Shown: positions 5,769 to 55,322, counted from the stretch's first letter. The stretch is 64,000 nucleotides of DNA from Sedimentisphaerales bacterium (GCA_963663965.2 CAXXFK010000022.1:37622-101621); one strand, 5' to 3'. The notes: a model not told the origin generated them from the sequence alone. A program made the numbers and translations.

Positions 5769-7460
5769 TCAGTTGGCGGCCGCCAGTTGATATTCGGTCA
5801 GGATGTTATCCATATCCGGTTGAAGGAAGACCTCGGCCAGTTCCGGATCGAACTGGGTGCCGCTGAACCGCCTGATTTCAGCCAGCGCCATATCCAGCGG
5901 CATGGCATTGCGATAGTGGCGGTTGGAGATCATGGCGTCGAAGGAATCGGCCAGCATGACAATGCGGCCGGACAGCGGGATTTCAGTACCACGCAAACCG
6001 CGCGGGTATCCTCTGCCATCGTAACGCTCGTGATGACTCAGAACGGTTTCCCTGACTTCGGCCATCTGTTTGATTTCTTTGAGGATATTGAATCCAATCT
6101 GGGGATGCTTTTTGATTTGTTCGTATTCATCATCGGTGAGACGGCCCGGTTTGCACAAGACGGCTTCACTGACACCGATTTTACCGACATCATGCAGTAA
6201 ACCGGCCAGATAAATGGTGTCGATCTGCTGAGGTGACAGGCCGATTCGTTCGGCGATGCTGCGGGAAATCAGGGCGACACGCTGAGAATGGCCGCAGGTA
6301 TAGGGGTCTTTGGCGTCGATGCTGTTGGTCAGAGCTCCCAGCGAGCCCAGCAGCAGTTCCTGCATGTCGTCGTATAAGCTGCGGTTTTCCAGAAAGACGG
6401 CCAGTTCGACCGCGACGAGATCCAGCAGTTTGACATCGATGCTGTTGAAATCCGGACGGGTCTGTTTATTCACGGCAACCAGAAAACCGAATACCTTTCG
6501 GTCAAGCTGGATGGGCATGAGGATCACGTTTTTGATGGGATCCGGCCAGCGATGCTGCATTGGGCTGTCTACGCTGCCGTCAATTAAATAGGGCTTGTTG
6601 TTTTCAATCAATTCGAGTGCCCGATCCCAAAGATAGCGGAACTGGGATTCGCTGAAGGAAATCTGTCGACAGGACGTCACGGAGGGCAACAAGTCGCCAA
6701 AATCATCCGGACTAATTTTTCGACCGGAATTGTTTTGTCTGTTCCAGAACAGGAGCATATCATTGCATTCGAGCACTTCGCTTAACTGGCTGACCAGTTG
6801 ATCAAAGTACCGATTCAGGTCCTGAGTCAGGCGCATATTATCCGTCATTTTATGCAAGAGGGCCAGCTCTTCGTAGCATTGCACCAGGGATTGACTCAGG
6901 GCTTCAATTTCGCCATTCTGGCGGGACAGATCCATCGAGCGGCCAATCAGGTGCTGGATGATCACCGAGACCAAACTGGCAGTGCGTTCGGATGAGAATG
7001 TCTGTCCCAGGGTATTGCGGAAAAAGAGTTCACTATCGACCCCGAAACGATCGCAGGTTCGCTGAAAGGCTTCGGTTTTTTTCTGAGCCAGGCTATTGAG
7101 ACAGACAAACAGGCAGGCGGACCGCCGGAAATCTTCATGAACGGGCAGCATCATAAACTGGCCCTGTCGAGGGCAGGCGCCCAGAAAAATTTTACCCTGA
7201 TCGTTTAAATCCTCGATCATCCCGCCCTGTTCAATCCATTCCTGTACTCCTTCTTCGCTGGATAGTTTTTTCATCAGTTGAGTGTTGCGGGAAGGGCAAT
7301 TTTCACAGAGGCCTTCGCCGGCGCATTCGTTGAGGGAATACGGTTTTCCGATGTTGTCAATCAATATCGCCGGCAGGTGCAAACCGTTTAGCAGGCGGAT
7401 AATCTCGCGGCAAGCTGCAATACTGAAATGGCGGGTATTCTGTAAAACTGAAAGTTGCAT
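5769..7460 (-). CDS. GAF + HD-GYP domain phosphodiesterase (probably c-di-GMP)
   Basis: DAKDPYTCGHSQRV, HDVGKIG, HHERYDGRGYPRGL; a GAF-like segment lies upstream. Confidence 0.9.
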   Translation of the reverse strand: MQLSVLQNTRHFSIAACREIIRLLNGLHLPAILIDNIGKPYSLNECAGEGLCENCPSRNTQLMKKLSSEEGVQEWIEQGGMIEDLNDQGKIFLGACPRQGQFMMLPVHEDFRRSACLFVCLNSLAQKKTEAFQRTCDRFGVDSELFFRNTLGQTFSSERTASLVSVIIQHLIGRSMDLSRQNGEIEALSQSLVQCYEELALLHKMTDNMRLTQDLNRYFDQLVSQLSEVLECNDMLLFWNRQNNSGRKISPDDFGDLLPSVTSCRQISFSESQFRYLWDRALELIENNKPYLIDGSVDSPMQHRWPDPIKNVILMPIQLDRKVFGFLVAVNKQTRPDFNSIDVKLLDLVAVELAVFLENRSLYDDMQELLLGSLGALTNSIDAKDPYTCGHSQRVALISRSIAERIGLSPQQIDTIYLAGLLHDVGKIGVSEAVLCKPGRLTDDEYEQIKKHPQIGFNILKEIKQMAEVRETVLSHHERYDGRGYPRGLRGTEIPLSGRIVMLADSFDAMISNRHYRNAMPLDMALAEIRRFSGTQFDPELAEVFLQPDMDNILTEYQLAAAN

Positions 7461-10726: not shown

Positions 10727-12604
10727 TTATTCCTGTTGAATGACATTTTGCATGAAGTAATGCATGTTGCCCATGTTGGCGACATAGATCTGGCGAACGC
10801 GTAATTCATCGCGCAGCAGGCGCGCTTCCATAATAGCAGGATTGATCGAGACGGCCATATCCGCATGCCACTTCGCAGAATTAATTTTACCATTGTCTTT
10901 GCTGATCATGGCCTGATTGTAATGAGCGGCCGCCAGTCTTTCGCGACTGTGCCATTGCATATTCTCACGGATACCCGTTACCAGACTATGGGCGTTGTTC
11001 AGCACGTTTTCGCCTTCGGCGTAATCGATTTCTTCTTTGATGATATGGGGGGTGATCAGGAAGATGACTTCCTCTTTGGTATTTTCATCGACGGTACTGC
11101 GGAAGAGCGAGCCGATCAAAGGCAGATTACCCGCCACTGGAATCTGTGAGCGGCCCAGGTTGGTGTTTTCACGGAACAATCCACCAATAACGATGGTATT
11201 GCCATCTTTCACCAGAATATTCGTGTCAACCTGAGTGGTGGTTTTTTCCGGGAGCGCAAACGAGCCTTTAACGACTACAGAACCGGAACTATCTTCAGGA
11301 TGCAATTCCATTCGAATATAACCATCATCCATGATAAAGGGGACAAAGCGAAGAATAGTACCGGTTTTGAGCATTTGTACGCTCTGGGTGGTTGTGGTGG
11401 TGGAGGTCTCCGTGGTAATATAACCTTCGTCGCGACCAACGCGGACTTCAGCCGGTTGACGGTTGAGAGTCAGCACTTTGGGATTGCCCAGGGTGACTGC
11501 ATCGTTGGTCGTTTCAATGGCGCGGATAAACATACCGATATTATTTTTAACAATACCGATATTGAGACCGGTATCGCTGACATTGCCACGGAAGGCGGTG
11601 CCGCCGCTGAAGGTTGTGCCATTTAAGGCCGTCGCGTCAGAAGGCACCCCATTCACAAAACCATTTACCCCCTGGAAATCAACGCCGCCCAGAACATCGA
11701 AATCGACGCCCAATTCATCTTTATCCGACAAAGTGACAACCAGAATGGTTGCCTCCACCAGAATCTGCGCGGGCCGACGATCCAGTTCTTTTAAAGCGAT
11801 CTCAACTTTTTCCAGGTATTCGGGATAATCCACGACAATCATGCAATTATTGCCGGCCCAGTTATCGCCGGTTTTTTCGGTGTCTTCGAATTTCGGCGTC
11901 GAGACAATGGCGCCGTTGGCGCTCAGTAATTTCGCGATCATTTTTTCGGCATCGACCGTTGAGATATAATTCAGACGAAAGACCCTGGTTTCGGTTTTGC
12001 GTTCGGCTTCTTTGATGATTTGGTATTCTTTATCGGTGTAGACATAGATAAACCCATCCTTTTTCTCATACGCATAACCGTTCGGCGGTAGTACGGCATC
12101 GAGTATCTGCTCGCAGGTAACATCAAACAAATTAACTGAAATCTGACCGGCCACTTGCCGTGTCGGGATAATATTGATATTGCAGGTAACGCTTAAAAAC
12201 CGGATGAAATCGACGACATCACCCTTGAAAACGACCGAAGGGAGGGTTCCGTCGGCTTGCATCGGCGCTACTTCCAGAATGGACTCGGTTTTTTCGGCCG
12301 GATTGGTGGCCATCGCATCCTGATTCTCTTCGGCAGCGATCTCGACAGTGGTATCCTGGGCATCCGCCGAGGCGTCCTGAGTGGCAGGAGGATAGACGTT
12401 ATTCGTTTCGGGATTATCGGCCAGTTCTTTCTGGACGGCCGATAAAACTTCTTCACGCATTTCAGAAGCATCATCCCCGGACATGTCAAAGGCCTGGCTG
12501 AGAATATTTTGAACTGTCGAGGAATCACCGGATTCGCCGAGCACGGGAATCGCACTGATTGCCAGAGTCGTTAACACTATCCAAAACAATTTGTTGTTGC
12601 GCAT
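10727..12604 (-). CDS. Secretin (GspD/PilQ family)
   Basis: Signal peptide, QILVEATIL, VKDGNTIVIGGL, IPVAGNLPLIGSLFR, VIFLITPHII. Confidence 0.9.
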   Translation of the reverse strand: MRNNKLFWIVLTTLAISAIPVLGESGDSSTVQNILSQAFDMSGDDASEMREEVLSAVQKELADNPETNNVYPPATQDASADAQDTTVEIAAEENQDAMATNPAEKTESILEVAPMQADGTLPSVVFKGDVVDFIRFLSVTCNINIIPTRQVAGQISVNLFDVTCEQILDAVLPPNGYAYEKKDGFIYVYTDKEYQIIKEAERKTETRVFRLNYISTVDAEKMIAKLLSANGAIVSTPKFEDTEKTGDNWAGNNCMIVVDYPEYLEKVEIALKELDRRPAQILVEATILVVTLSDKDELGVDFDVLGGVDFQGVNGFVNGVPSDATALNGTTFSGGTAFRGNVSDTGLNIGIVKNNIGMFIRAIETTNDAVTLGNPKVLTLNRQPAEVRVGRDEGYITTETSTTTTTQSVQMLKTGTILRFVPFIMDDGYIRMELHPEDSSGSVVVKGSFALPEKTTTQVDTNILVKDGNTIVIGGLFRENTNLGRSQIPVAGNLPLIGSLFRSTVDENTKEEVIFLITPHIIKEEIDYAEGENVLNNAHSLVTGIRENMQWHSRERLAAAHYNQAMISKDNGKINSAKWHADMAVSINPAIMEARLLRDELRVRQIYVANMGNMHYFMQNVIQQE

Positions 12605-43147: not shown

Positions 43148-43369
43148 TTTATATACCCATTGGGCCGGCTACATAAACGTCATAAAATCGAGGGTGAGTG
43201 TGTTCTATGCGTCTGAAAATGTGGTGGCGCAGGTTGTGATACAACATAACGAAAAAGGGCTATTTTTAGCGACAAACGACGACAATAAACCTGTAAACAG
43301 TGAAGATATGAAATCGGCCTTAATGGGGACAAATACGCGGATTTCAGCCGAAAAAGAGGGAATTGTGGG

Positions 43370-43418
43370 GACAGCCAGCAGACGGACTCGAACCGTCAAC
43401 CGTCCGCTTACAAAGCGG
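43370..43418. repeat. att core copy (duplicate of the tRNA-Thr 3' part)
   Basis: GACAGCCAGCAGACGGACTCGAACCGTCAACCGTCCGCTTACAAAGCGG, identical to 55166..55214. Confidence 0.95.
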
Positions 43419-43602
43419 AAGGCAGCAATCTGTAACTATTGATAATATAACGAGTTATGAATTTTTAAAAAATGACCTTGCCAGCCAGCTTGCCAAATCG
43501 ATGTTAAGTGATACACATTTTAAGACACTTTGTGAGGCATGGCCGAACCTGAAAGAATGGCAAAAACAGGCGATTCTGGCGATTGTTAAGGGGGAGAAAT
43601 GA
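43372..43602 (+). other. Detached integrase C-terminal segment (rejoined in the excised form)
   Basis: In frame with the integrase across the att core; no convincing RBS or start of its own. Confidence 0.65.
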
Positions 43603-43887
43603 TAAGGCGGGACGAAGCGATTCAAAACATACCACCCCTGGAAGTGTATAAAAAAAGAAAGCTGGTACCGGGGGTAAGGAGTATTTGGTACCAGCTAAGC
43701 TCGGAAACGGCTTTATTTTGGGGTTTTGATGCGGAAATGGCAAGAATTTTTTAATAAATATGGGCAAACCCGTATTTACCACGATTGATTTAATAGCCCG
43801 GAATGGGTATGATGAAATAGATGCAATCATTGCAATTTGGGTAGATTGCTGGAAAGTTTATCTATTTTCACATAGAAGGAGCCGGAT

Positions 43888-46800
43888 ATGGATAAGAATG
43901 CGGTTATTCAAGCAAGCTCGATAAATTGTGATAATTATCAATACGTTTTTGCGTTCATTCATGCAGGGTGCTGGATAAGACCTGTATTCGTATTTAGTAT
44001 CTGTCTGGTATTATTAATCAATTTGTCATGGGCAGATACATTTGGATCAGTTGGTACAGTAGATAATCAATTTGCAATTGATTTTGTTATGATCAATGGC
44101 AAATATCGAATCGGTAAGTTTGAAATTACCAGATGCCAATGGGTAAAGTATCAAAGTATTATAGGCATAAATAGTAGCAACCAAGGATTAGATGATCCTG
44201 ACCTACCAGTTGAAGTCGATTGGGATGGTGCCGCACATTTTGTGAACTGGCTTAATACTAGTACTGGCCACCATGCTGCATACAAATTAGTTGAAGATCA
44301 GGGTACTGGAGACTCTAGCTTTTCGGCATGGGAACCTGATGATTTTGGTTATGATCCCAGTAATCCATATCGCAATAAACATGCCCATTACTATTTACCT
44401 ACTGAGGATGAATGGGTCAATGCTGCCTACTGGAATGGTACAGACATGCAAGTTTATGCGACAAAGGCCGGTGAACATCTGCATCAGGGTAACGGTGTCA
44501 ATGGCACAGGTTGGAATTACTTCTATGAGTACAGTTGGGGGCCAACTAATCCATGCTATGGTCGCCCTGCAACAAGCCCTCCAGGCCCATGGAGGGTTGG
44601 TAGTGGTTCAGAGGAACTTAATGGCACATATGACATGATGGGTAATTTGTGGGAACTGACTGAAACGCCTTGTTCTGCGGAAAATAATGCTAGAGTCATT
44701 CGCGGAGGTGCATACGAATGTAGTATATATATAGATTGTCGCCGTTTTCTAGAATCGACCTTTAGGACATGCACGGATAATTTATATTATGGATATAGCG
44801 AGATAGGATTTCGTGTCGCATCAAACCTTGAATCTGAAATGCCAATCAAATATAGCGGCGGTTATGGCTATGAAGATTATCCGTATGAGATTGCTACCAC
44901 AGAGGATTTAATTGCACTGGGCCAGAATACAGTGGATTATGATAAATATTTTATTTTAACGGCAGATATTGATCTCTCCTCTTATCAAGATATTAATAAT
45001 TCCCTGATCGCACCAAGTACCCAAGGTTCCAATTGGCAGTTTAACGGACTAATGTTTGATGGTAACTTTGATGGCGCGGAACATACCATAAGCAATTTGC
45101 ATATCAATGCCTCTGGTTCTAATATTTCTTATCTTGGCTTGTTCGGGTATATTGGCTCTTCTGCTCAAATTGTAAATATTAAAATCCAAGATTGCACCAT
45201 CATTGGTGGGCCTGAATCGAATTGTATTGGCGGATTATGCGGCTTTAATAATGGAACCATAGAGCAATGTCATATTTCTTGTTTAATCGAGATAGGAAAT
45301 TTAGCCCAATACGTTGGGGGGCTATGTGGAGAGAACCATGGAACTATCCGGGATTGTGATACCATAAGCACTGTAATAAGCGATTATGATGAAGAATCTG
45401 GCCCGTTGGGTGGATTATGCGGAGCTAATCGTGGTGTCATCAATGGCTGCTATGCGAATGGTACTGTTATGGGCATTTATGCCATAGGCGGACTTTGTGG
45501 TACTAATATGGAACAGGGCATTATTACAAATTCCGACGCCTCTGGCAATATCATGGGCAAATCAAGTGTCGGCGGACTATGTGGTGAAAATAGCGCAGTA
45601 ATTTCTCAATGTCACGCCACAACTCATGTATCGGTAATTGATCTGGACTATGAAGAGGGTGGCGATTCCCTCTATGAATTTATAGGCGGACTTTGCGGCT
45701 GGAACTATTTGGGGATCATATCAGAATGTTATGCCGCCGGTATTGTATGGAGTCGCTGTCATACTAGTGGCATTGGCGGATTCTGCGGATGGTCAAATGG
45801 CACTATCGAAAATTCTTACTCGCTTGCTTCCGTTACTAGCGGAGAATGGTCAGAATATATTGGCGGTTTCTGTGGAGAGAAAGATAACGGAACGATCGAC
45901 AACTGTTATGCTTCCAGTCCAATTTCTGTAGGACAATTTTCCGAAAAAGTAGGCGGTCTGTGTGGCTATAGTTCCGGCATAGCTATCACTAGTTGTTTTT
46001 GGGATATTGAAACATCCAGCACAACCACCAGTGACGGCGGATTTGGTAAAACCACTGCCGAAATGCAGGATGTTCAATCCTACCTAAACTCCGGTTGGGA
46101 TTTTATTGGTGAATCAATCAATGGAACTGATGACTATTGGATGATTAGACCGGGTGAATATCCTAGACTTGTTTACTTTGAAGACTTGAAAAAAGGTAGT
46201 GGTACCAAAGATGATCCTTTTAAAATTTATTCAATCGACGACTTTTTATATGCGGCAAGCCGAAATGAAGATTATGATAAATATTATATCCTGATGAACG
46301 ATATCAATTTATTATTAAATTCAAACAATACAGCTTTTTTTGCCCCTGATACTTCAACATCTAGTGGTTTTCAAGGTGCTTCTTTCACGGGTTCATTCGA
46401 TGGACAAGGTTATTCTATAATTGGCTTGACGATTGAAGGAGTGGATGAAGGTAATGACTATTTGGGCCTGTTTGGTTTTGTTGGTACGGGTGGCATAGTG
46501 AAGAATTTACATTTAGTAGATTGTTTAGTGGCCGGAGATGATTATATTAGTGGATTGTCTGGAATGAATTATGGTTCGGTTGAAAATTGTTCAGTTCAGG
46601 GTAGTCTGTCAGGGGATGATTATATTGGGGGAATAACCAGCTATAAGCTTTATGGAACTGTTAGTAAATGTTGGACCGATATTAATATCATTACGGGAGA
46701 TTTTGTCTATTATGTGGGGGGGTTGGTAGGACAGGCCTATTCATCTACTATTACCGGTTGTAGCGCCCAGGTAGACATTATCTGTCAAATGCAGGCTGAT

Positions 46801-47521
46801 TGGATTGGCGGATTAATAGGCGGCACCACCAATGGCCAAATTATGCAAAGTTGCTCTATAGGGACAATCGAAACAAATGATATGTGCGATAATCTGGGTG
46901 GTTTAATGGGTATCAATTATGGGGGTATCATCAAAGAATCATACAGTACGGTTGATATCAGCAGTGTTGGAGATTGCTGGTTATTGGGGGGTCTGGTGGG
47001 TAACAATACCTATAACACGGCTAATCACCGTTTGAGCGGTATTATCAATTGTTACGCAACCGGCAATATTTCTGGCCGCGAACTTGTGGGCGGTCTGGTT
47101 GGTTCGAATGAATTTGGCTGTCAGATTACCAGCAGTTATGCTACAGGTGCTGTAAATGGCAAATCATCGGGCGGATTGGTTGGTTTCAATTTTGCCGGCG
47201 ATGTTGAGGCCTGTGTTTCTGGGATATTCAGAGTTCGGGCCTGGTTTACAGTGGAGCCGGAATCGGTTTGCTGACCGAGGCCATGCAGAATCCAGACACA
47301 TATACCGGGGCAGGATGGGATTTTGAAGACATCTGGCACATGCCCTATCAATCAACCGGTTACCCCATGCTCTGGTGGCAACGTGATATCCCAGGGGATA
47401 CGACGGGAAGTTATGGAGTAAACATAGAAGATTATGTGAATATATCCAATCGGTGGCTGATCCGGATGGGGCTGATATGACGGAGTTGATGAGAATTGTG
47501 GAGTATTGGTTGGAAAAATAA
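43888..47521 (+). pseudogene. Secreted FGE-sulfatase-domain + GLUG-repeat protein, frameshifted near the C-terminus
   Basis: YRIGKFEIT, LPTEDEW, GTYDMMGNLWE, RGG, IGFRV (FGE fold) and many GGLCG/GGLVG repeats. Frame breaks at ~47213 and ~47458. Confidence 0.75.
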
Positions 47522-47630
47522 TTTTGTAATAATCTCAAAGATGTCGTTAGTTGTATTAAAATTCAACTTATGATTAAAGTTGGCTAGTTTGACGACAGAT
47601 TGACAATTAAAATAATAAAGGGAATTTGTT

Positions 47631-49244
47631 ATGAAGCAATGGTTTTTTATCGCTTTAGTTATGCCCTCTTGGGCTTTAGGAGCTATTTCAAATGAAGCGG
47701 GCTTAAGGTTATGGGCTCAGAATGGCGGGGATGAAACTATCTCAGGAACAATTGTTTTATCGGCCAATTTGATAATAACGCAATCGGGGACATTAACCGC
47801 AACCGGGGCCACTACGATTGATTGTACGAATAACAATCATAGTTATTTAATCTACCTTAGTAATTCCAGTGGATTACCTGTTGAAATATCATTTATCGGC
47901 AGTTATGGAAAAAGAATCCGATTTACTGAAAGCTCTTCATTCGCGAACATTGTGTCTTGTCAGGGGACCGGGGGAATAACAGTCAATTATTATCATTGTG
48001 ACTTTGATTCCTCTCAAGATGGCTTAAAAACGGCCAATAAAGCGTATGGTCCGATTACTTTAAATTGCTTTTACTGCAATGCCTACAATAACAGTAACGA
48101 TGGCTTTTCCTTAGCAGGTAATTCATGGGGACTTGATGATTTTCAAAGCGTAGTTGATTTGGAAAATGGGCTGGTCAGTCTCAAGGCTACAGGCCATAAA
48201 TTGATAGTGGGGGATCAATTCCGATTCTTGACACTGGAAAACTATCCGGACACCTACACCATAGATGCAGCCAGTGATTCGGATACGATTGTCTTTGAGG
48301 CGGATTATATTGCTGAAACAATTGATAAGTCCGATACGGTTGGTTATTATGTCCCATATCCACAAACAATGAATCTGGTAGCGTGTAATTCTTATGCCAA
48401 TCAATTTGATGGCGTAACCTTGCATACCAATAACCAATATATCCATGTGGATGGCGGTCGATATTATGGAAATGGCAAATCGGGATTTTCATTGGTAGGA
48501 TTGAATCATGGGGCAGGCGGGGAATGTGTTATTAAGAACGCCACAATTTATGATAATGGTGGGAATATCAAAACTAACGGCGATATTTACGCGGGGCAGG
48601 GAGTTAAGAAATTGGTTTTAGATGGATGCTGGCTTAAAAAGTTTGATGTTAAAAAGGCTTCTTCTGTTTATGGACAGGTTAATTTAGCTGATTGCCATAC
48701 CGCGATTATTAAAAACTGTCTATTCACTGATCCAGTAGATTTATCTTCTTTTGTCGTCTATTTAATCAATTGTCCCAACGCAACTGATCCTTGCGAAAAT
48801 TTAACAATTGATAACTGTCGGTTCGATGGATTTTCCATGCCCGCAACAAATTATGTCATTTATGCCCGTAGTCTAACCAATCAATTGATTGTTAAAAATT
48901 CAACGTTTAGCGATTGTGAACGTTGTATTTATACGCCAATGGGAAACACAAAATATTCGATTGATCGGTGTGCCTTTATGGATACTGCCATGGGAATATA
49001 TGATGTATATTCGAGTGTGAAATATGCCAGTAATGCCAATTGTTGTAGCAATCAGTTTGATAATGTAATCCATATTGCAGCATCGGCCAATACATGTCAG
49101 GTTACAGATTTTCCCAATCAAAACGTCGGACAGTGCATTATGGGTATCGATTCTTATTGGTGGTGGGTAGATGATTGGGCAAGTAGTATAAAAATGGGCG
49201 ATTTTGCGGAGATCAGCAAAAAATGGCCTCCAAATTCTAATTGA
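47631..49244 (+). CDS. Secreted right-handed beta-helix protein
   Basis: Signal peptide; repeats such as CNAYNNSNDGF, CNSYANQFDGV, IKNCLF, IDNCRF. Confidence 0.7.
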   Translation: MKQWFFIALVMPSWALGAISNEAGLRLWAQNGGDETISGTIVLSANLIITQSGTLTATGATTIDCTNNNHSYLIYLSNSSGLPVEISFIGSYGKRIRFTESSSFANIVSCQGTGGITVNYYHCDFDSSQDGLKTANKAYGPITLNCFYCNAYNNSNDGFSLAGNSWGLDDFQSVVDLENGLVSLKATGHKLIVGDQFRFLTLENYPDTYTIDAASDSDTIVFEADYIAETIDKSDTVGYYVPYPQTMNLVACNSYANQFDGVTLHTNNQYIHVDGGRYYGNGKSGFSLVGLNHGAGGECVIKNATIYDNGGNIKTNGDIYAGQGVKKLVLDGCWLKKFDVKKASSVYGQVNLADCHTAIIKNCLFTDPVDLSSFVVYLINCPNATDPCENLTIDNCRFDGFSMPATNYVIYARSLTNQLIVKNSTFSDCERCIYTPMGNTKYSIDRCAFMDTAMGIYDVYSSVKYASNANCCSNQFDNVIHIAASANTCQVTDFPNQNVGQCIMGIDSYWWWVDDWASSIKMGDFAEISKKWPPNSN

Positions 49245-49359
49245 GGATTTTAATAAATCCGGGTGGACACCGGCCAGTGTCGATGCGTTCCGGGTTTCGG
49301 TTGCTCTCTGTGTACCGGCAATCAAGGCCCGGAGCGGCCCGGACTTTGAGGTACACATA

Positions 49360-49944
49360 ATGAATGAGTTATCACAGAAGGTTATCGAGCTTTGGCATGG
49401 GAACGGTCGGGACAGGTTGGCAGACGCTATCTTGGAAGCATGGACGGCGATCATGGCTGGCTATGAAGCCGCGGAGGATGACCCACAACCCACGGCGGCC
49501 CGGTGTGTGTACTGGATCATTTATGAACAAACGGAAGTGGCTAGAGCAATGTACGGCCAATTGAGCGAAGTTGAGAGGATGAGACGCGATTTTTGGCTGT
49601 TGGCGGTTCTGTCGTATCGGTACGGGGACGATCTGGCTTATAGCACGGTCGCGGCACTGGAGGAGATTTATAAAATCGCAACCCTAATTTGTGATGACAT
49701 GAAAATGACAGAATCTCTCCAAATGGTGTTTACTAGCGCGATCATGTCGGTGGAACGATGGCTAAAAAACAGTGGAGATGCCGGAGAATCGGCCCCCCCA
49801 AAACCAAAAAATAGACGAAAAGTAACTCCAAGGACCCCGCACGAACAGCGGATTAATTTCTTTAGAAAATACATCATCAAAAACCCCGGTTGTAACTCCC
49901 CTGAAATAGCGTACGGCGTACAGCGAAAAATTCAAAAAAGATGA
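49360..49944 (+). CDS. Hypothetical protein, possibly a frameshifted winged-HTH protein
   Basis: GAGG RBS before ATG 49360. A plausible continuation in another frame runs to 50065. Confidence 0.55.
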   Translation: MNELSQKVIELWHGNGRDRLADAILEAWTAIMAGYEAAEDDPQPTAARCVYWIIYEQTEVARAMYGQLSEVERMRRDFWLLAVLSYRYGDDLAYSTVAALEEIYKIATLICDDMKMTESLQMVFTSAIMSVERWLKNSGDAGESAPPKPKNRRKVTPRTPHEQRINFFRKYIIKNPGCNSPEIAYGVQRKIQKR

Positions 49945-50288
49945 GATTTCTGACGATACAGTCAAGGGTTATTTCCGCAAAGGCAAAACATTGCGCAATG
50001 AGGGTCTTTATTACCGTCCAGGAGAGAATGGGCCCGGTTATTATCCACCGGAACCGGAGAAATGAGGAATAAAAGTATTGGTACGGTATGATTTTTGGGT
50101 GTGAAATAGAAATTGCTGATTTCACAGGGCGTTATATTTTAACTTAAATCGGGTGTTACAGGGCATTCAAAAACTATTGTGTGAAATTGACGAAGTTTCA
50201 CATCACAAGGATACCGGTCTAAAAATTGTTTGGGTATTGTGACTTCTATGTTAATTGAAACAAAAACTTATTTTGTAGAGATCAAAAC

Positions 50289-50513
50289 ATGAAGCACGAA
50301 AAAAAATATCCGACTCGTCAGGTGGCCAAGATACTGGGATGTGTACCAGGCAGCCTGTCACAAGCGGTATGGAACAACAAAATTACACCACCACCCGAAA
50401 AAGTTGGTGGTTCTTATGTCTGGACGCGAGAGGACATAATCCGGGCGGGCTGGCAGTTGTTTAAGCGCGATGTTCGACCATTGTTGGGGGTTGGCGATCA
50501 TGACAACGGATGA
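50289..50513 (+). CDS. Small HTH DNA-binding protein (Xis/MerR-like)
   Basis: TRQVAKILGC...L.......KI.PP....G.YVWTREDI. Confidence 0.7.
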   Translation: MKHEKKYPTRQVAKILGCVPGSLSQAVWNNKITPPPEKVGGSYVWTREDIIRAGWQLFKRDVRPLLGVGDHDNG

Positions 50514-50790
50514 GCTTGTAACCACCCTGGAAACAATTCTTGCCAGACTGGATAAGCTTTCCAAGCTGGTCGAATCCGATGGACTAATGCTAAGCGCTGC
50601 CGATACGGCGAAAACTTTGGGCGTTAGCAGATCATTGCTTTACGAAATGAAAAACGCCGGTTTGCTACCGGCCCCGATCAGTTTTGGAAGACGGTTGTGC
50701 TGGTCGAAAGATGAACTCCGGGCGTGGATTGGGGCGGGTTGTCCGGCTGCGGATCGATGGGAAGTTTTGAAGAAACGAAAGGCGGTGTGA
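50500..50790 (+). CDS. AlpA-family HTH protein
   Basis: TAKTLGVSRSLLYEM...GLLPAPISFG...WSKDELRAWI..GCP. Confidence 0.8.
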   Translation: MTTDELVTTLETILARLDKLSKLVESDGLMLSAADTAKTLGVSRSLLYEMKNAGLLPAPISFGRRLCWSKDELRAWIGAGCPAADRWEVLKKRKAV

Positions 50791-50791
50791 C

Positions 50792-51046
50792 GTGAGTGAA
50801 GCAATTGAATATGTCGAAGCCTATCGTTTACTTTCGGTTGAGCAAGCGGCGGCGAAATTGAAAATTCACCGGACTACACTATACAGGCATATACTAAATC
50901 GGAAATTCGGTCCGATGGTTAAAAAATCACCCTCTGGTCATAGCCGGATATATGATGACGAGCTAAAGTTATGGATTTTTTATGGAAAGCCTGATAAAGA
51001 TGCCTGGCAAAATATCAAGCGGTTGAGAAGGGAGGCTAGGAAATGA
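50792..51046 (+). CDS. AlpA/excisionase-like HTH protein
   Basis: LLSVEQAAAKLKIHRTTLYR...ELKLWI. Confidence 0.75.
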   Translation: MSEAIEYVEAYRLLSVEQAAAKLKIHRTTLYRHILNRKFGPMVKKSPSGHSRIYDDELKLWIFYGKPDKDAWQNIKRLRREARK

Positions 51047-51116
51047 GTGGCAGTACCATTGAAAAAATCTCCGGCGTAAATGGCGGCACGAAACTACAGC
51101 GAAATGGCGGCGACCG

Positions 51117-51617
51117 ATGACAGATACAGTCGATGAGAAACTGCGAAGAAAAAAGCCTTGGTATTGGCTTACAGACACCAACTATGCAAACCGATTGGTT
51201 CTTAATCGTGATATGGTTGAATCTGAGGTGTTTCGATCTTTAAGCGGGAATGCTGTTAAACTCTATCTGTTATTATGTTTGAGACTGACTGTCGAGAATC
51301 GAGCTGGGCGCAATGAAAAGCCTGAGTATCGAGCGAAAAACAACGGTGAACTCATACTGAGTTATAAATCGGCCAAGCGGCTTATAGGGTTTTCTTCACG
51401 GACGGTATCACGGGTAATTGATGAGCTCGTTAATAAGGGTTTTATCGAAATTGCCGTCATAGGCGAGGGCAAGCACAGGCGAAGCCATAAGCTCGCGATG
51501 ATTGATTTGTGGAAATATATAGACCAGCCGGATTATGAACCTGGGCAGGGCAAGGCTTTGTTGCCGTCCAACGGCGGCTTTAAAACAAAACGACGAACTC
51601 CAAAACGGTCACTGTGA
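51117..51617 (+). CDS. Winged-HTH putative replication initiator
   Basis: FRSLSGNAVKLYL...FSSRTVSRVIDELVNKGFIE; immediately followed by iteron-like repeats. Confidence 0.6.
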   Translation: MTDTVDEKLRRKKPWYWLTDTNYANRLVLNRDMVESEVFRSLSGNAVKLYLLLCLRLTVENRAGRNEKPEYRAKNNGELILSYKSAKRLIGFSSRTVSRVIDELVNKGFIEIAVIGEGKHRRSHKLAMIDLWKYIDQPDYEPGQGKALLPSNGGFKTKRRTPKRSL

Positions 51618-51625
51618 CCGTTTTT

Positions 51626-51758
51626 CACCTTTACTTTTTAAAGGTGAAGCCAAGGTGACACCTTTACTTTTGCAAGTAGTTCATTTTGAAAACGACATAA
51701 AACAGGCCCAACACCTTTACTTTTTGCATGTTGTCAAAATCTTAACACCTTTACTTTT
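51626..51758 (+). repeat. Four iteron-like direct repeats CACCTTTACTTTT (putative origin)
   Basis: Copies start at 51626, 51659, 51712 and 51746. Confidence 0.8.
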
Positions 51759-51822
51759 GCATGTATTTTAAAGAAACCCATAAGGGTAAACATTTAGTCT
51801 TAAAATTGGAGTCACATAAACC

Positions 51823-52635
51823 ATGAGTAATTTACTACAATCAAAGGCCCAGGAACTAAAAGAGCTTAACATCAGGATTGCACAATCGGTTAGATCAACT
51901 TTGGAAATGGCAATGCAAGCCGGTCAACTACTGATTGAAATCAAAGAGGGCTTGCCCCATGGAATTTTCACCAACTGGATTCATAAGCATTGTGACATAT
52001 CGCCAGAGACGGCCAGGCGGTATATGCGGGTTTACGAACGGCGGGAGGAACTCAAAACGGTCACAGTGACCGGTTTATCTGATGCCTATAGGTATCTGGC
52101 GGCCCCGTCAGAGGATGCTTGCCAGGGCGAATTAGATGCCCTGGACGATATCGCTCCGGTGGATGAAGGCGGTCAGGATTATACCGACGATCAGCCATTT
52201 GATGATGAGCCAGAAGCAGCAACCCAAGATGAGGACCAGACATGGCCGGATGAGCCTAACATTGTTGGCCCCAAAATGACCGACAAGGCGGGAGTGGAAA
52301 TCCCGGACGAACTCATTCCAATCTGGCAAGACGCTCAGGTTAAATTCGGAGCATGGAGGCAGCAGCTAAATCAAATGCTTGCTGATGCCCAAAGGTGGAA
52401 AGAGTCTGGCGTGCCCTGTATGCAGCATATTCACATTGATAATTTTCGACATCAAATTGATCAAGTAAAGGAGGACATTAAGTTTTCGCGGCCCTATGCC
52501 GTCTGTCCATATTGTGGCGGAGATGGCGGGGTAGATGGTAATTGTAGGGCGTGTAACGGCGGTGGATGGGTAAATGAAATGCAATATGCTGCATGCCCTT
52601 CGGAGTTTAAGCAGAATATGGCTCGATTTGGCTAA
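51823..52635 (+). CDS. DUF3102-like protein with acidic linker and C-terminal CxxCxGxG zinc finger
   Basis: AGQLLIEIKEGLPHGIFTNWI...ISPETARRYM; CPYCGG...CRACNGGG. Confidence 0.75.
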   Translation: MSNLLQSKAQELKELNIRIAQSVRSTLEMAMQAGQLLIEIKEGLPHGIFTNWIHKHCDISPETARRYMRVYERREELKTVTVTGLSDAYRYLAAPSEDACQGELDALDDIAPVDEGGQDYTDDQPFDDEPEAATQDEDQTWPDEPNIVGPKMTDKAGVEIPDELIPIWQDAQVKFGAWRQQLNQMLADAQRWKESGVPCMQHIHIDNFRHQIDQVKEDIKFSRPYAVCPYCGGDGGVDGNCRACNGGGWVNEMQYAACPSEFKQNMARFG

Positions 52636-52791
52636 ACAGAAACGGGTCCTTCCTGGGGTATTGGGGTATCTGGCACGATGCCAGTCCCTTTGGCTGGGTG
52701 ACTTATCATTTGGAGTTAAATCGATGTCTGAACAAAATCATATTGAACAAATCCGAACAAATCCGAACATTTTTTAAAAAAGGAATCAGCA

Positions 52792-53151
52792 GTGAAACGT
52801 AATCAAATTCAATCGCGTTTGAAAAAACTGGAAAGCATGGAAGAAATCGGCACTCCCGGTAAGGTCCGGATTATTATCGATGTGTCTAAAAAATATCAAG
52901 AGCCGGAAAGTGAATTGGCGGCGTTCTGGCCGAAAACGGATGAACCCGCTGAACGGTGGGAATCCTATCGATTGCAGGATGAACTGAAAACGAATGGCGC
53001 GGTTACGATCTGGATATCACCCAGACTTGAAGCCGTTGTCCGCAAGTTGAGCGCGGAGCGTAAGCCGATTGATATTAATGCGTTGCTTATCGAGTCAGGA
53101 TGTTCACAACAGGTATTGAGTATTGATGATGTTGAGGAGATGAAGGAATGA
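52792..53151 (+). CDS. Hypothetical protein
   Basis: AAGGA RBS; ATGA overlap with the next gene. Confidence 0.6.
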   Translation: MKRNQIQSRLKKLESMEEIGTPGKVRIIIDVSKKYQEPESELAAFWPKTDEPAERWESYRLQDELKTNGAVTIWISPRLEAVVRKLSAERKPIDINALLIESGCSQQVLSIDDVEEMKE

Positions 53152-53525
53152 CAGAGAGCAAGTCGGAATTGAGCGGACGGCAGCAAAAGGCGATTGCGGA
53201 AGTTTTGGCAGGCCCGACTGTAACCGAAGCGTTACGGCGGGCAAAGGTGGGCAGGACTCAATGGTATACCTGGCTGAATGATCCGCAGTTCAAGTCATAT
53301 TATGAAACACGTCGAAAACAGCTTACCGATGAGGCGTTTGAATCGGTGCGCACAGCCTTGACGCGGGCAGTGAATGTGCTGGTGAACCTGCTGGATGATC
53401 AGACGAATACCGATGACCGGTTGCGACGGCAGGCGGCGATTGACTTGATTAAAATCCATCTGGATCAGAACGAAATGGCCGATCTGGTCGAGCGCGTGGA
53501 ACTGCTGGAAAAAGGAGGTATATAG
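53148..53525 (+). CDS. HTH protein resembling small terminase subunits (phBC6A51-like)
   Basis: LSGRQQKAI..L...TVTEA...AKVGRTQWYTWL.DP.F followed by helical segments. Confidence 0.6.
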   Translation: MTESKSELSGRQQKAIAEVLAGPTVTEALRRAKVGRTQWYTWLNDPQFKSYYETRRKQLTDEAFESVRTALTRAVNVLVNLLDDQTNTDDRLRRQAAIDLIKIHLDQNEMADLVERVELLEKGGI

Positions 53526-53564
53526 ATTTAGTAGAGGAATAATATATAATATTACCCATTGAGA

Positions 53565-53593
53565 TTGACATAATTGGATTCAGGAGTTATACT
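53565..53593 (+). promoter_or_regulatory. Consensus sigma70 promoter upstream of the integrase
   Basis: TTGACA-17 nt-TATACT. Confidence 0.8.
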
Positions 53594-53638
53594 GTATTTA
53601 TGATGATGTACTCGACCATCACAATCTGGAATAAATTT

Positions 53639-53689
53639 AAAGCCCATTGCGGGGGCTTCGGCCCTGTCGAGACGCGATGGGCTTTTTTT
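53639..53689 (+). terminator. Branched terminator/attenuator hairpin before the integrase
   Basis: AAGCCCATTGCG...CGCGATGGGCTT plus T-run, with an inner GGGGC-TTCG-GCCCT hairpin. Confidence 0.7.
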
Positions 53690-53703
53690 GTTTGGGTTGA
53701 ACA

Positions 53704-55230
53704 ATGAGACAGAAAAATCCTTACAAGCCGTTGTATCGATTGGCCGATTCTGAAACATGGCGGATTGAATTTTATGACCACAGAGGCAGACGGCAGCGGT
53801 GGGCATTGAATACCAAAAGCCTGAAACTGGCCCAGGAACTAGCCAAACAGATTGACAGCGTTCTCGCTTGCCGGGTGTCTGGCGATCAGCCGGACTCACA
53901 GTTAAGCCGTTGGCTTGAAAGTTGCCCGGTCTGGCTATTGCAACGCATGGCCGATGCCGACATGTTGGCTAATAGCCGGGTTGCCGGATGCAAGCCTTTG
54001 TCTGAACATATTGACGATTTTAAGGCCTATGTCGAGGCGAAGGGGGCGACCAGCCGACAGGCAGCACAACAGGCCGGGAATGTTGAACGGTTATTGATTG
54101 ACCAGTTGAAACTGACATTCTGGCGCGGCGTTGACGGGGACGCGGTTTTGCAAACGATAGCGACCTTGAAAAGCAAAGACGATAAGTCGTTGTCGGTAGA
54201 AAGCAAAAATAAATATATTCAGGCGGTTAAGATGTTTTCCCGGTGGATGAAAAATAGCAAGCGAAGCGCAGGGGATTTATTGGATCATATCCAGCCATTG
54301 CCCAAACGGGGAATCGATGACAGCAAGAGAGCTAGACGGCCCTTTACACAAGATGAACTGTCTTATCTGTTGAAATGGGTACGGGATAGCGGTAAAGAGC
54401 GTTATAGCTCAACCGGAGAGGCCAGAGCCTTGCTTTATGAAACGGCGGTTTATACTGGATTACGGGTAAATGAACTGCGTTCTTTGACGATTGCCGATAT
54501 TGACATTCAGCGGCAAGAAGTGAGCTTATCTGGCCGTCATACCAAGAACGGCAAACCGGCTATTTTGCCCTTGCGTCAAGAGCTTGCCGACAAAATGGCT
54601 GGCTTCATACGCGGCAAGATGCCGGGGGCGAGTTTGTTTTATGTTCCCGATAAACCGACGAAAATGCTCGACAAGGATATTGATGATGCCCGGTCAAGCT
54701 GGCTGGCAGAATCCCAGACGGCGGCGGTGAGGGCGGAACGGCTTAAGTCTGACTTTCTGAAAAAAGAGACCGAACAGGGCATTCTTTGCTTTCACGGTTT
54801 CCGTCATACCTTCGCTACATTGTTGGGTGACAATGGTATTCATCCCAAAACAGCCATGTCCCTTTTGCGTCATTCCGATGTCAATCTGACAATGGCGATT
54901 TATTCCCATAGTATCCGGGAGCGGGAAGCGTCAGCAGTGGCAGCATTACCCGATTTTGACCGGCCCGCCAGTGAGGCTGTTAAGAAAACGGGTACTGATG
55001 ACGTAAGTCCAAATATTCACCTTGTCAAATCCTTGCCAAATCAGTGTACAGAACTGGACAAAAAAACGCAAATTGGTGAATTTCAAACAATATTTGGAAC
55101 TGTTGACAAATGCACAACGAACCCCGTAAATGACTGCAATATAATGAATTACGACCAAATAAAAAGACAGCCAGCAGACGGACTCGAACCGTCAACCGTC
55201 CGCTTACAAAGCGGGGGCTCTACCAATTGA
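53704..55230 (+). CDS. Tyrosine recombinase/integrase
   Basis: TGLRVNEL, HTKNG, FHGFRHTF, LLRHS...T...Y. The ORF reads through the att core. Confidence 0.93.
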   Translation: MRQKNPYKPLYRLADSETWRIEFYDHRGRRQRWALNTKSLKLAQELAKQIDSVLACRVSGDQPDSQLSRWLESCPVWLLQRMADADMLANSRVAGCKPLSEHIDDFKAYVEAKGATSRQAAQQAGNVERLLIDQLKLTFWRGVDGDAVLQTIATLKSKDDKSLSVESKNKYIQAVKMFSRWMKNSKRSAGDLLDHIQPLPKRGIDDSKRARRPFTQDELSYLLKWVRDSGKERYSSTGEARALLYETAVYTGLRVNELRSLTIADIDIQRQEVSLSGRHTKNGKPAILPLRQELADKMAGFIRGKMPGASLFYVPDKPTKMLDKDIDDARSSWLAESQTAAVRAERLKSDFLKKETEQGILCFHGFRHTFATLLGDNGIHPKTAMSLLRHSDVNLTMAIYSHSIREREASAVAALPDFDRPASEAVKKTGTDDVSPNIHLVKSLPNQCTELDKKTQIGEFQTIFGTVDKCTTNPVNDCNIMNYDQIKRQPADGLEPSTVRLQSGGSTN

Positions 55231-55241
55231 GCTATGCTGGC
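55169..55241 (-). tRNA. tRNA-Thr (TGT)
   Basis: GCCAGCATAGCTCAATTGGTAGAGC...TTTGTAA...GGTTCGAGTCC...TGCTGGCT cloverleaf; CCA not encoded. Confidence 0.93.
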
Positions 55242-55248
55242 GCAAAAG

Positions 55249-55322
55249 TGGGCCCTGTAGGACTCGAACCTACGACCCAGCGATTATGAGTCGCTTGCTC
55301 TAACCAACTGAGCTAAGGGCCC
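55249..55322 (-). tRNA. tRNA with CAT anticodon, most likely tRNA-Ile2 (lysidine)
   Basis: GGGCCCTTAGCTCAGTTGGTTAGAGCAAGCGACTCATAATCGCT... resembles ileX-type tRNAs rather than initiator or elongator Met. Confidence 0.85.

Follow-up and report, generated by a model that had tools for sequence, protein, structure and literature searches.

A tyrosine integrase gene running through its own attachment site in a tRNA-Thr element of a planctomycete, and the conserved C-terminal tail that integration would remove

The DNA analysed here, a stretch of 64,000 nt from Sedimentisphaerales bacterium (GCA_963663965.2 CAXXFK010000022.1:37622-101621; below, the window, with positions counted from its first letter), carries an 11.8-kb integrative element whose tyrosine integrase gene, int, reads through the element's own attachment (att) core. 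We consider it probable that the integrase gene spans attP, the attachment site of the circular form, so that integration strips a conserved tail from the protein and excision restores it, with a switch of function as in the Myxococcus phage Mx8. The structural part of this interpretation, namely that the whole integrase family is built alike for any tRNA target and in either orientation, is strongly supported by sequence comparison. A switch of integrase activity or stability may reasonably be inferred by analogy.

The element is delimited by an exact 49-nt direct repeat (49/49 identical, spacing 11796), the two copies of which (Table 1) bound positions 43370-55214 within tRNA-Thr. The right copy lies inside the minus-strand gene for tRNA-Thr(tgt), which adjoins a tRNA-Met at 55248-55322, and is therefore the 3' part of the tRNA read antisense. 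At the left end of the element 46 nt of tRNA-Thr are duplicated as a displaced 3' fragment. An intact tRNA gene, a displaced direct-repeat fragment of that gene and an integrase between or overlapping the two are all present, as in the definition of Islander-type islands (PMC4383910). On the sequence, we conclude that an integrative element, occupying 43370-55214, has entered tRNA-Thr in the 3' part of the gene. The original prediction gave the correct core length of 49 bp and placed its start at 43372, 2 nt away from the actual start at 43370. Orthologues of the left-flank peptidase in three relatives have no tRNA within their 1.5-kb flanks, which makes a comparison with the empty site (attB) by synteny impossible.

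The integrase belongs to the Pfam family Phage_integrase, with a match at residues 215-404 of 69.4 bits against a cutoff of 27.1. Tyrosine recombinases are characterised by the active-site signature R-K-H-R-H/W-Y, and the corresponding residues are present in the window integrase. In an alignment of 25 homologues, R254, K281, R367, H390 and Y400 are invariant and H364 is conserved in at least 90%, their roles being assigned by alignment position. Since all these catalytic-type residues lie upstream of the core, integration leaves the catalytic domain unbroken; the crossover falls about 90 codons past the catalytic tyrosine. The catalytic domain runs to about residue 415 and is followed by a linker, and some 100 residues lie beyond the domain in total. 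The right core is read as ...RQPADGLEPSTVRLQSG, so that residues 488-504 (17 residues) are coded by the att core, and the open reading frame (ORF) closes with GSTN and a stop four codons past the core, the 508-aa protein ending in ...IKRQPADGLEPSTVRLQSGGSTN.

The left copy of the core is read as QPADGLEPSTVRLQSG in the same phase as in int (phase 1 in both), and the frame stays open past the core for 60 codons, RQQSVT...AILAIVKGEK, up to a stop at 43600-43602. Joining the ends yields 504 + 60 = 564 residues. At the local base composition the probability of 60 open codons is 0.025 and that of the 104-codon extension of int being open is 0.0016, with a further 1/3 for agreement in phase by chance. 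The circle of the window element would, from its sequence, encode an integrase of 564 aa and the chromosomal int one of 508 aa. Both ends of this arrangement had been proposed in the original prediction, which read a 508-aa integrase through the core to GSTN and a stop, antisense in tRNA-Thr, and a left copy in frame with 60 more codons, a stop at 43602 and a 564-aa circle form; the ORF calls, the tRNA calls and the computed phases agree with it.

The phase relation extends beyond the window. For every tail found on the same contig and strand as an integrase, the att repeat was compared for its phase in the two frames. The phase agrees in 15/15 clear pairs of integrase and tail, drawn from other genomes and from metagenome contigs (L046, L047, L048, L049, L050, L051, L052, G033 element A, G187, L074, L082, L137, L153, L132 and L089), for which random phases would give (1/3)^15. 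The targets span eight or more tRNA types, including tRNA-Cys, Ser, Leu, Met, Lys, Pro, Glu and Arg, and the tRNA is read sense in L046, L048 and L051 and antisense in the remaining pairs. With this variety of targets and with both orientations represented, the tRNA sequence itself cannot account for the agreement. A further locus in phase, L103, is kept outside the 15, as its repeat is not tRNA-derived. Further pairs outside the test are L045, where int runs off the contig end, L053/L054, which have no common repeat, and L083, L088, L143 and L146, where int is cut at the locus or contig end. Tails thus lie just inside tRNA-derived att copies and in the phase of the distal integrase, as was originally expected, and again in keeping with that expectation they lack a conserved start of their own: the N-terminal extensions of called tail ORFs range from 0 to 188 aa with a median of 40.

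Joined forms occur naturally. The 8171-bp contig L122 has an exact 55-bp terminal overlap, and its int ORF wraps across the contig ends, running in one frame through the tRNA-derived GGGSRTRTRV into ...VVDSWPTLPEAIRAGILAMV; judged by this overlap, L122 is a circular molecule carrying the attP form. In L100 integrase, core and tail make up one ORF, and P0003 (590 aa), P0029 (635 aa) and the fragment P0141 contain the catalytic end, an ATGTD motif, a tRNA-like peptide and the tail. L074 is an integrated element with an integrase 83% identical to P0003 that ends in ...GIEPTTYGLGNRRSIH, while its left end, ...GIEPTTYGLGNRPTVS...SVLAFCLAFFDRESPELAAVVRSWSTLPEAVRAGIVAMV, is close to the P0003 tail. 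In the fragment P0172 the tail directly follows the catalytic domain with no tRNA-like stretch, and this single example suggests that the integrase family natively carries the tail as a C-terminal domain. In the structural model of P0003, the catalytic and core-binding domains and the N-terminal sheet are predicted with confidence, and the tail helices at 547-586 have a predicted local distance difference test (pLDDT) score of 83-93, with pLDDT <50 for residues 437-538, the tRNA-coded stretch included. The tRNA-coded stretch is thus predicted to sit in a disordered linker of about 100 aa, and it is this disorder that would allow any tRNA sequence in any frame to be tolerated.

Within the window tail, AlphaFold2 predicts a three-helix domain at residues 20-59 (helices 20-30, 32-43 and 46-59), with pLDDT of 92-98 across the block and >90 for residues 21-60. 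An alignment of 136 sequences has W41 invariant and L34, L44, I52 and A54 conserved in at least 90%, with the consensus LAxCLAxLxxxxPDLAxVVxAWPxLPEAxRAGIxAMV. A tail profile (A1) was built from seven tails, and 1950 cluster representatives are related to the tail at E<=1e-3. These relatives are nearly always called as small hypothetical ORFs, and the best 150 of the 1950 are all 40-236 aa long with the tail at the C-terminal end. Among 149 representative ORFs with the tail, 62 have an antisense T-loop peptide in the N-terminal extension, where shuffled sequences would lead one to expect 4.1. The tail has no match in Pfam, NCBIfam or PHROG. Its model finds nothing in a Foldseek search of the PDB at E<=0.001; in a wide VIA-align search it reaches a best Z of 3.8, with no convincing likeness to a solved structure and no assignable fold; and its matches in the ESM Atlas are solely unnamed planctomycete clusters of hypothetical proteins. 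A word-index search for longer proteins with the window tail returned none, the fused forms being known from other searches. A complex prediction for integrase residues 1-420 and the tail scored 0.00, which argues neither way. The tail had originally been proposed to be helical, to be an unrecognised integrase domain and to be usually annotated as a separate hypothetical protein. These proposals hold up well, given the three predicted helices, the lack of Pfam and NCBIfam matches combined with the fused forms P0003, P0029, P0141, L100 and L122, and the calls of mostly 40-236 aa.

Candidates for arm-type binding sites are found in coding DNA on both sides of the core. The 11-mer CTTGCCAAATC occurs twice, 134 nt before the core inside int and 71 nt past the core in the DNA coding for the first tail helix, and its two copies are read in different phases. 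In 10/12 elements the longest direct repeat between the arms, 9-21 nt in length, lies about 115-180 nt ahead of the core on one side and 47-72 nt beyond it on the other; these repeats share a common core of about CTTGSC and are often in different phases. Comparisons between unrelated elements sometimes reach similar repeat lengths, which could reflect a shared site or chance. Because the repeats are short and the controls similar, the CTTGSC-like repeats, roughly 140 nt ahead of the core and 60 nt beyond it, are listed only as candidate arm-type binding sites embedded in the ORF. In the P0003 model the N-terminus folds into strands at 2-9, 15-26 and 32-36 and a helix; we take this three-stranded sheet and helix to resemble an arm-binding domain.

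Integrase and tail are both widespread. Homologues of the integrase at 28-37% identity are 402 to 612 aa long, and many of them end in antisense tRNA T-arm peptides in all three frames (GFEP.., DSNP.., RIRT..). The genome of the window holds three more integrase paralogues, each by a tRNA gene (His, Arg, Leu), and tblastn with the tail also recovers paralogous tails there. The tail on C24 stands directly after a 60-nt tRNA-Leu fragment, and that on C42 follows a 22-nt tRNA-His fragment and reads GERGDSN, the same as the C2 integrase. Across 401 genomes of the phylum, a tail match is found in 77 and an integrase match (E<=1e-20) in 75. With three integrase candidates scored per genome, both occur in 37 genomes, the tail alone in 40, the integrase alone in 38 and neither in 286, an odds ratio of 7 to be read with the caution that related genomes are not independent. 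An Rfam scan upstream of the tails recovered only some of the tRNA fragments, and a T-arm pattern with a background control was therefore used. A strict T-arm lies at most 300 nt upstream in 18 of 29 tail loci from other genomes, always within the open frame of the tail (14 antisense, 4 sense), compared with 4 of 250 background windows.

A scan of species-representative genomes gave 473 stretches, and 72 of the best 80 loci carry names that we read as planctomycete taxa. The bins holding L080, L092, L096, L104, L122 and L133 are labelled beta proteobacterium, Nitrospira, Anaerolineales, Enemella or Myxococcaceae; these loci could be mis-binned mobile DNA, L122 being a free circle, or could indicate a wider host range. 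The L050 element (G374:C40) contains an additional, nearly identical copy of the tail at oriented coordinates 6475-6564, not preceded by an att core, and aragorn annotates a full tRNA-Met gene at each att end; L050 looks like a rearranged or tandem array. Contig C6 of genome G000 carries, between about 100 and 282 kb, fragments of tRNA-Val (100567-100608, 281646-281688), tRNA-Asp (109020-109061) and tRNA-His (278770-278797) along with three tail copies (102193-102384, 200531-200632, 226412-226585) and no matching integrase, and could be either a hotspot for elements of this kind or their graveyard. Paired tRNA genes and fragments elsewhere in G000 suggest further islands, for tRNA-Gly on C15 (214994-215035 vs 260475-260546), tRNA-Asn on C28 (214727-214774 vs 172487-172561), tRNA-Met on C40 (several fragments) and tRNA-Arg on C3 (34160-34201 vs 11319-11392). 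At least 10 contigs of G000 also contain a peptide SLLRD(I/N)LA/SVRLCEAW, seen as weak tblastn matches to the tail query (for example C42:49495-49539, C13:199076-199126 and C32:171537-171581); it probably belongs to a multi-copy element, perhaps an insertion sequence, unrelated to the tail.

Sequence and comparison support the following layout. The int gene encodes the N-terminal, core-binding and catalytic domains, a variable linker and the 17 core-coded residues, and only in the circular form is the 60-aa tail added, the last 40 residues of which form the conserved three-helix domain. Integration moves the tail-coding DNA to the far left end of the element and leaves a chromosomal int of 508 aa, and excision would rejoin the parts to give 564 aa. 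For the function we propose that, as with IntP/IntX of Mx8, the enzyme would reflect the state of the element. The full-length enzyme, made from the circle only, would be the integration-proficient form. The truncated form, together with the excisionase candidates of the HTH_17 family encoded in the element, would have an altered, probably lower or excision-limited activity, stabilising the integrated state. A more far-reaching proposal, which we advance tentatively and would not bet on, is that this large family of elements, planctomycete in the main, hard-wires recombination directionality into the integrase gene, the tail being an integration-specific module that exists only in the circle and the arm-type sites lying in coding DNA. 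If this is true, the enzyme would be remodelled by each reaction it catalyses, and thousands of "hypothetical" small ORFs next to tRNA fragments would be stranded integrase ends that mark element boundaries exactly.

A number of observations weigh against the loss and recovery of the tail as described. A single ORF is found in only 2/8 contiguous arrangements of int, core and tail (L122 and L100). In the C24 element of the window's own genome a 102-bp repeat is in phase 0 vs 1, and its int is a frameshifted pseudogene. The tail is in another frame in L057 and L131 with no tandem explanation, and the left att copy of the L131 integrase is not followed by a tail in phase. In L101 the frame is the same and stops interrupt it; in L058 an ATGTD-like motif (TGVRD), the core and the tail share one frame, and a frameshift lies upstream of the motif. 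The tails adjacent to the G033 and L052 integrases are out of frame as well, and these are tandem-element junctions, since for either integrase an in-phase tail of its own is found at the opposite end of the element. The out-of-frame or broken arrangements may represent decayed or mosaic arrays, or assembly errors. Moreover, long open frames are cheap in GC-rich genomes, and a difference in activity between the 508-aa and 564-aa forms would follow from an analogy with Mx8. Excision was not detected for the window element: the 2-4x contigs of the sole public run hold no junction, and these contigs, with neither an attP nor an empty-site joint and with no gap-free cover, are uninformative about excision.

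The tail could instead be an independent small gene for a regulator or accessory factor, with its adjacency to att and its frame being incidental. This would fit its nearly constant annotation as a separate ORF of 40-236 aa and the out-of-frame contiguous arrangements of L057 and L131. Starts for the stranded tail are indeed assigned by gene callers, and the host flank of the window element holds a TTG with an AGAGGG-like, purine-rich stretch 3-8 nt upstream; separate translation is possible, which also counts against the preferred interpretation. What leads us to regard an independent gene as improbable is the phase agreement in all 15 pairs and the frame that passes without a stop out of the tRNA-derived core and into the tail, together with called starts at variable distances and often in tRNA-derived or host DNA. 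Natural fused ORFs, one of them on a circular contig, and the joining of tail and catalytic domain without a core in P0172 point the same way. The window's only ATG, GTG or TTG between the left core and the tail stop is an ATG inside the domain. A sigma-70 promoter scan upstream of the tail found no plus-strand site, with counts equal to those of shuffles, a result of little weight for this phylum. We judge it no more probable that the enzyme is a split protein, with a tail that is required in both states and, once the element is integrated, is made separately from fortuitous starts and acts in trans with the truncated integrase, so that integration changes the architecture and not the activity. 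In favour of this, it is common for the tail to be preceded by an open frame that offers possible starts, and it is conceivable in principle that a small folded domain carried on a long disordered linker works in trans. Binding of the tail to the core enzyme would, however, be hypothetical, and because the sequence upstream of the tail is host or tRNA DNA that differs at each site, neither a start nor a ribosome-binding site can be conserved.

A further explanation has the continuity of the ORF as a by-product of attP arms that flank the core, in which case DNA sites are what is conserved and the 508-aa form alone is relevant. The direct repeats between the arms fit this well, as their frequent occurrence in different phases indicates a constraint at the level of DNA and the repeat on the tail side of the core overlaps with helix 1 of the tail. 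Yet conservation is strongest farther downstream than this repeat (W41, L44, I52 and A54, in helices 2 and 3), the alignment backs a confidently predicted three-helix fold, and DNA sites alone would need neither matching phase nor an open frame in 15/15 pairs; we therefore give this explanation a slim chance. Slimmer by far is the chance of a "suicidal" integrase of the SSV type, destroyed by integration and dependent on another integrase for excision. It would share with the SSV family an attP within the int ORF, a feature described for that family (PMC7253208), but the position of the crossover past the catalytic tyrosine leaves all catalytic-type columns in the 508-aa ORF.

If the tail is the removable end of the integrase, a widespread unannotated domain gains an identity, and what has been treated as a curiosity in Mx8 becomes the conserved design of a whole integrase family. 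The combination of a tail ORF and a tRNA fragment would provide base-exact element boundaries in the poorly studied Planctomycetota. Natural pairs of truncated and full-length integrases would offer material on how a recombinase is regulated by its own reaction product, and a linker of about 100 aa that tolerates any tRNA sequence, frame and orientation would be a case of overlapping coding and site constraints.

The remaining genes of the element are collected in Table 1 with the features discussed above. In the gene for the 1128-aa cargo protein, DNA repeats of 35 nt (44935/46270) and 26 nt (46529/46607) mirror protein repeats. A contig of the sole public run (depth 7.4) lacks one base at 43836, a non-coding position between the tail and the first cargo gene. 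Three ORFs with AlpA-like helix-turn-helix (HTH) domains are candidate excisionases or regulators by their matches, phrog_66 being annotated as excisionase and transcriptional regulator. Capsid or tail genes are absent among the element's ORFs in the Pfam and PHROG searches. By its content, the gene set at 50289-53525 together with the integrase resembles a phage satellite, of the kind of phage-inducible chromosomal islands (PICI-like), or a small mobilisable island, here in a planctomycete. A palindromic 24-mer, CAAAACGGTCACTGTGACCGTTTT, occurs in two copies that are 92% alike, at 51601-51624 upstream of the DUF3102 gene and at 52053-52076 inside it; these could be operators or hairpins.

Table 1. 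Features of the element and its surroundings, with positions in the window
Feature	Position	Strand	Basis
TTG, first common start in the 79-aa ORF expected from gene callers over the tail; host flank, outside the element	43363..43365	+	putative
Left att core copy, displaced tRNA-Thr 3' fragment, antisense	43370..43418	+	repeat comparison; 46 nt of tRNA
Stranded integrase tail, 60 codons and stop, in phase with int across the core	43420..43602	+	phase 1/1; relatives; model
CTTGCCAAATC, candidate P' arm-type site	43489..43499	+	repeat
1128-aa cargo protein, GLUG repeats and FGE-sulfatase-like domain	43888..47274	+	ORF call, Pfam
537-aa beta-helix-like cargo protein	47631..49244	+	weak Pfam matches only
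246-aa ORF, no family match	49204..49944	+	Pfam, PHROG
Three HTH_17/AlpA-like ORFs (50289-50513, 50470-50790, 50792-51046)	50289..51046	+	HTH_17 3.5e-07, 1.3e-07; phrog_66
DnaD-like or replication-initiator-like protein	51117..51617	+	phrog_186 6.3e-07; HTH_36 weak
DUF3102 protein	51823..52635	+	Pfam, PHROG
Small-terminase-subunit-like protein	53148..53525	+	phrog_2538 9e-06; HTH_Tnp_1_2 below cutoff
Tyrosine integrase, integrated (truncated) form, 508 aa	53704..55230	+	PF00589 4.1e-19; phrog_1 2.4e-35; catalytic columns
CTTGCCAAATC, candidate P arm-type site	55032..55042	+	repeat
Right att core copy, within both the int ORF and the intact tRNA-Thr	55166..55214	+	tRNA and repeat searches
tRNA-Thr(tgt), integration target, restored by the element	55169..55241	-	tRNA search

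With the lambda- and P4-like heterobivalent integrases of Islander-type islands the element shares a tRNA gene with a displaced 3' fragment, an integrase inside and excisionase-like HTH genes. It differs from the classical cases in that their attP lies beside int and their protein is the same in both states. In the mycobacteriophages BPs, Brujita and their relatives, attP lies inside the repressor gene, and integration changes the C-terminus of the repressor and removes a degradation tag. Unlike in this integration-dependent immunity, the gene that is cut here is the integrase. Integrases extending across attP are on record for Mx8 and SSV (PMC4383910), which bears out the precedents cited in the original prediction. 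For SSV, PMC7253208 describes a recombination site within the integrase ORF and an integration that partitions the gene into inactive halves. The window element has its recombination site in the integrase ORF as SSV1-type elements do, but only an accessory C-terminal domain is removed and the whole catalytic domain stays in the 508-aa ORF. No account of the family or its tail was found in the full-text literature, PMC8138268 and PMC12884075 included, a search outside which subscription journals mostly fall.

The closest parallel is Mx8, whose IntP/IntX integrase targets tRNA-Asp. In both systems the int ORF runs through a tRNA-derived attP core with sites, in the window candidate ones, inside the gene on either side, and the C-terminal part is replaced while the catalytic domain stays whole; in the window the core lies downstream of Y400, and the DNA for the longer C-terminal part of the circle form is found at the opposite end of the integrated element. 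The Mx8 int gene was reportedly found to be altered by integration (Tojo 1996, Magrini 1999). According to PMC6070905, integration gives Mx8 int a new 3' end that modifies and does not abolish activity. Mx8 IntP carries STGLEPV about 110 residues from its end, which resembles an antisense T-loop peptide and which we read as the att core. Homology between the two systems is not supported: a BLASTP comparison of Mx8 Int with the window integrase gives a best E of 0.028 over 33 aa, hhalign of Mx8 Int with the tail profile a probability of 0.1%, and Mx8 is not among the 15 matches listed of 83 phage matches. In contrast to Mx8, which is a single phage, the family described here is large and mostly planctomycete, shares a conserved tail of three helices and occupies many different tRNA genes in either orientation, and the window element looks like a small island or satellite and not like a complete phage. 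From these comparisons we would classify the system in the window as a widespread, non-homologous new variant of the Mx8 principle.

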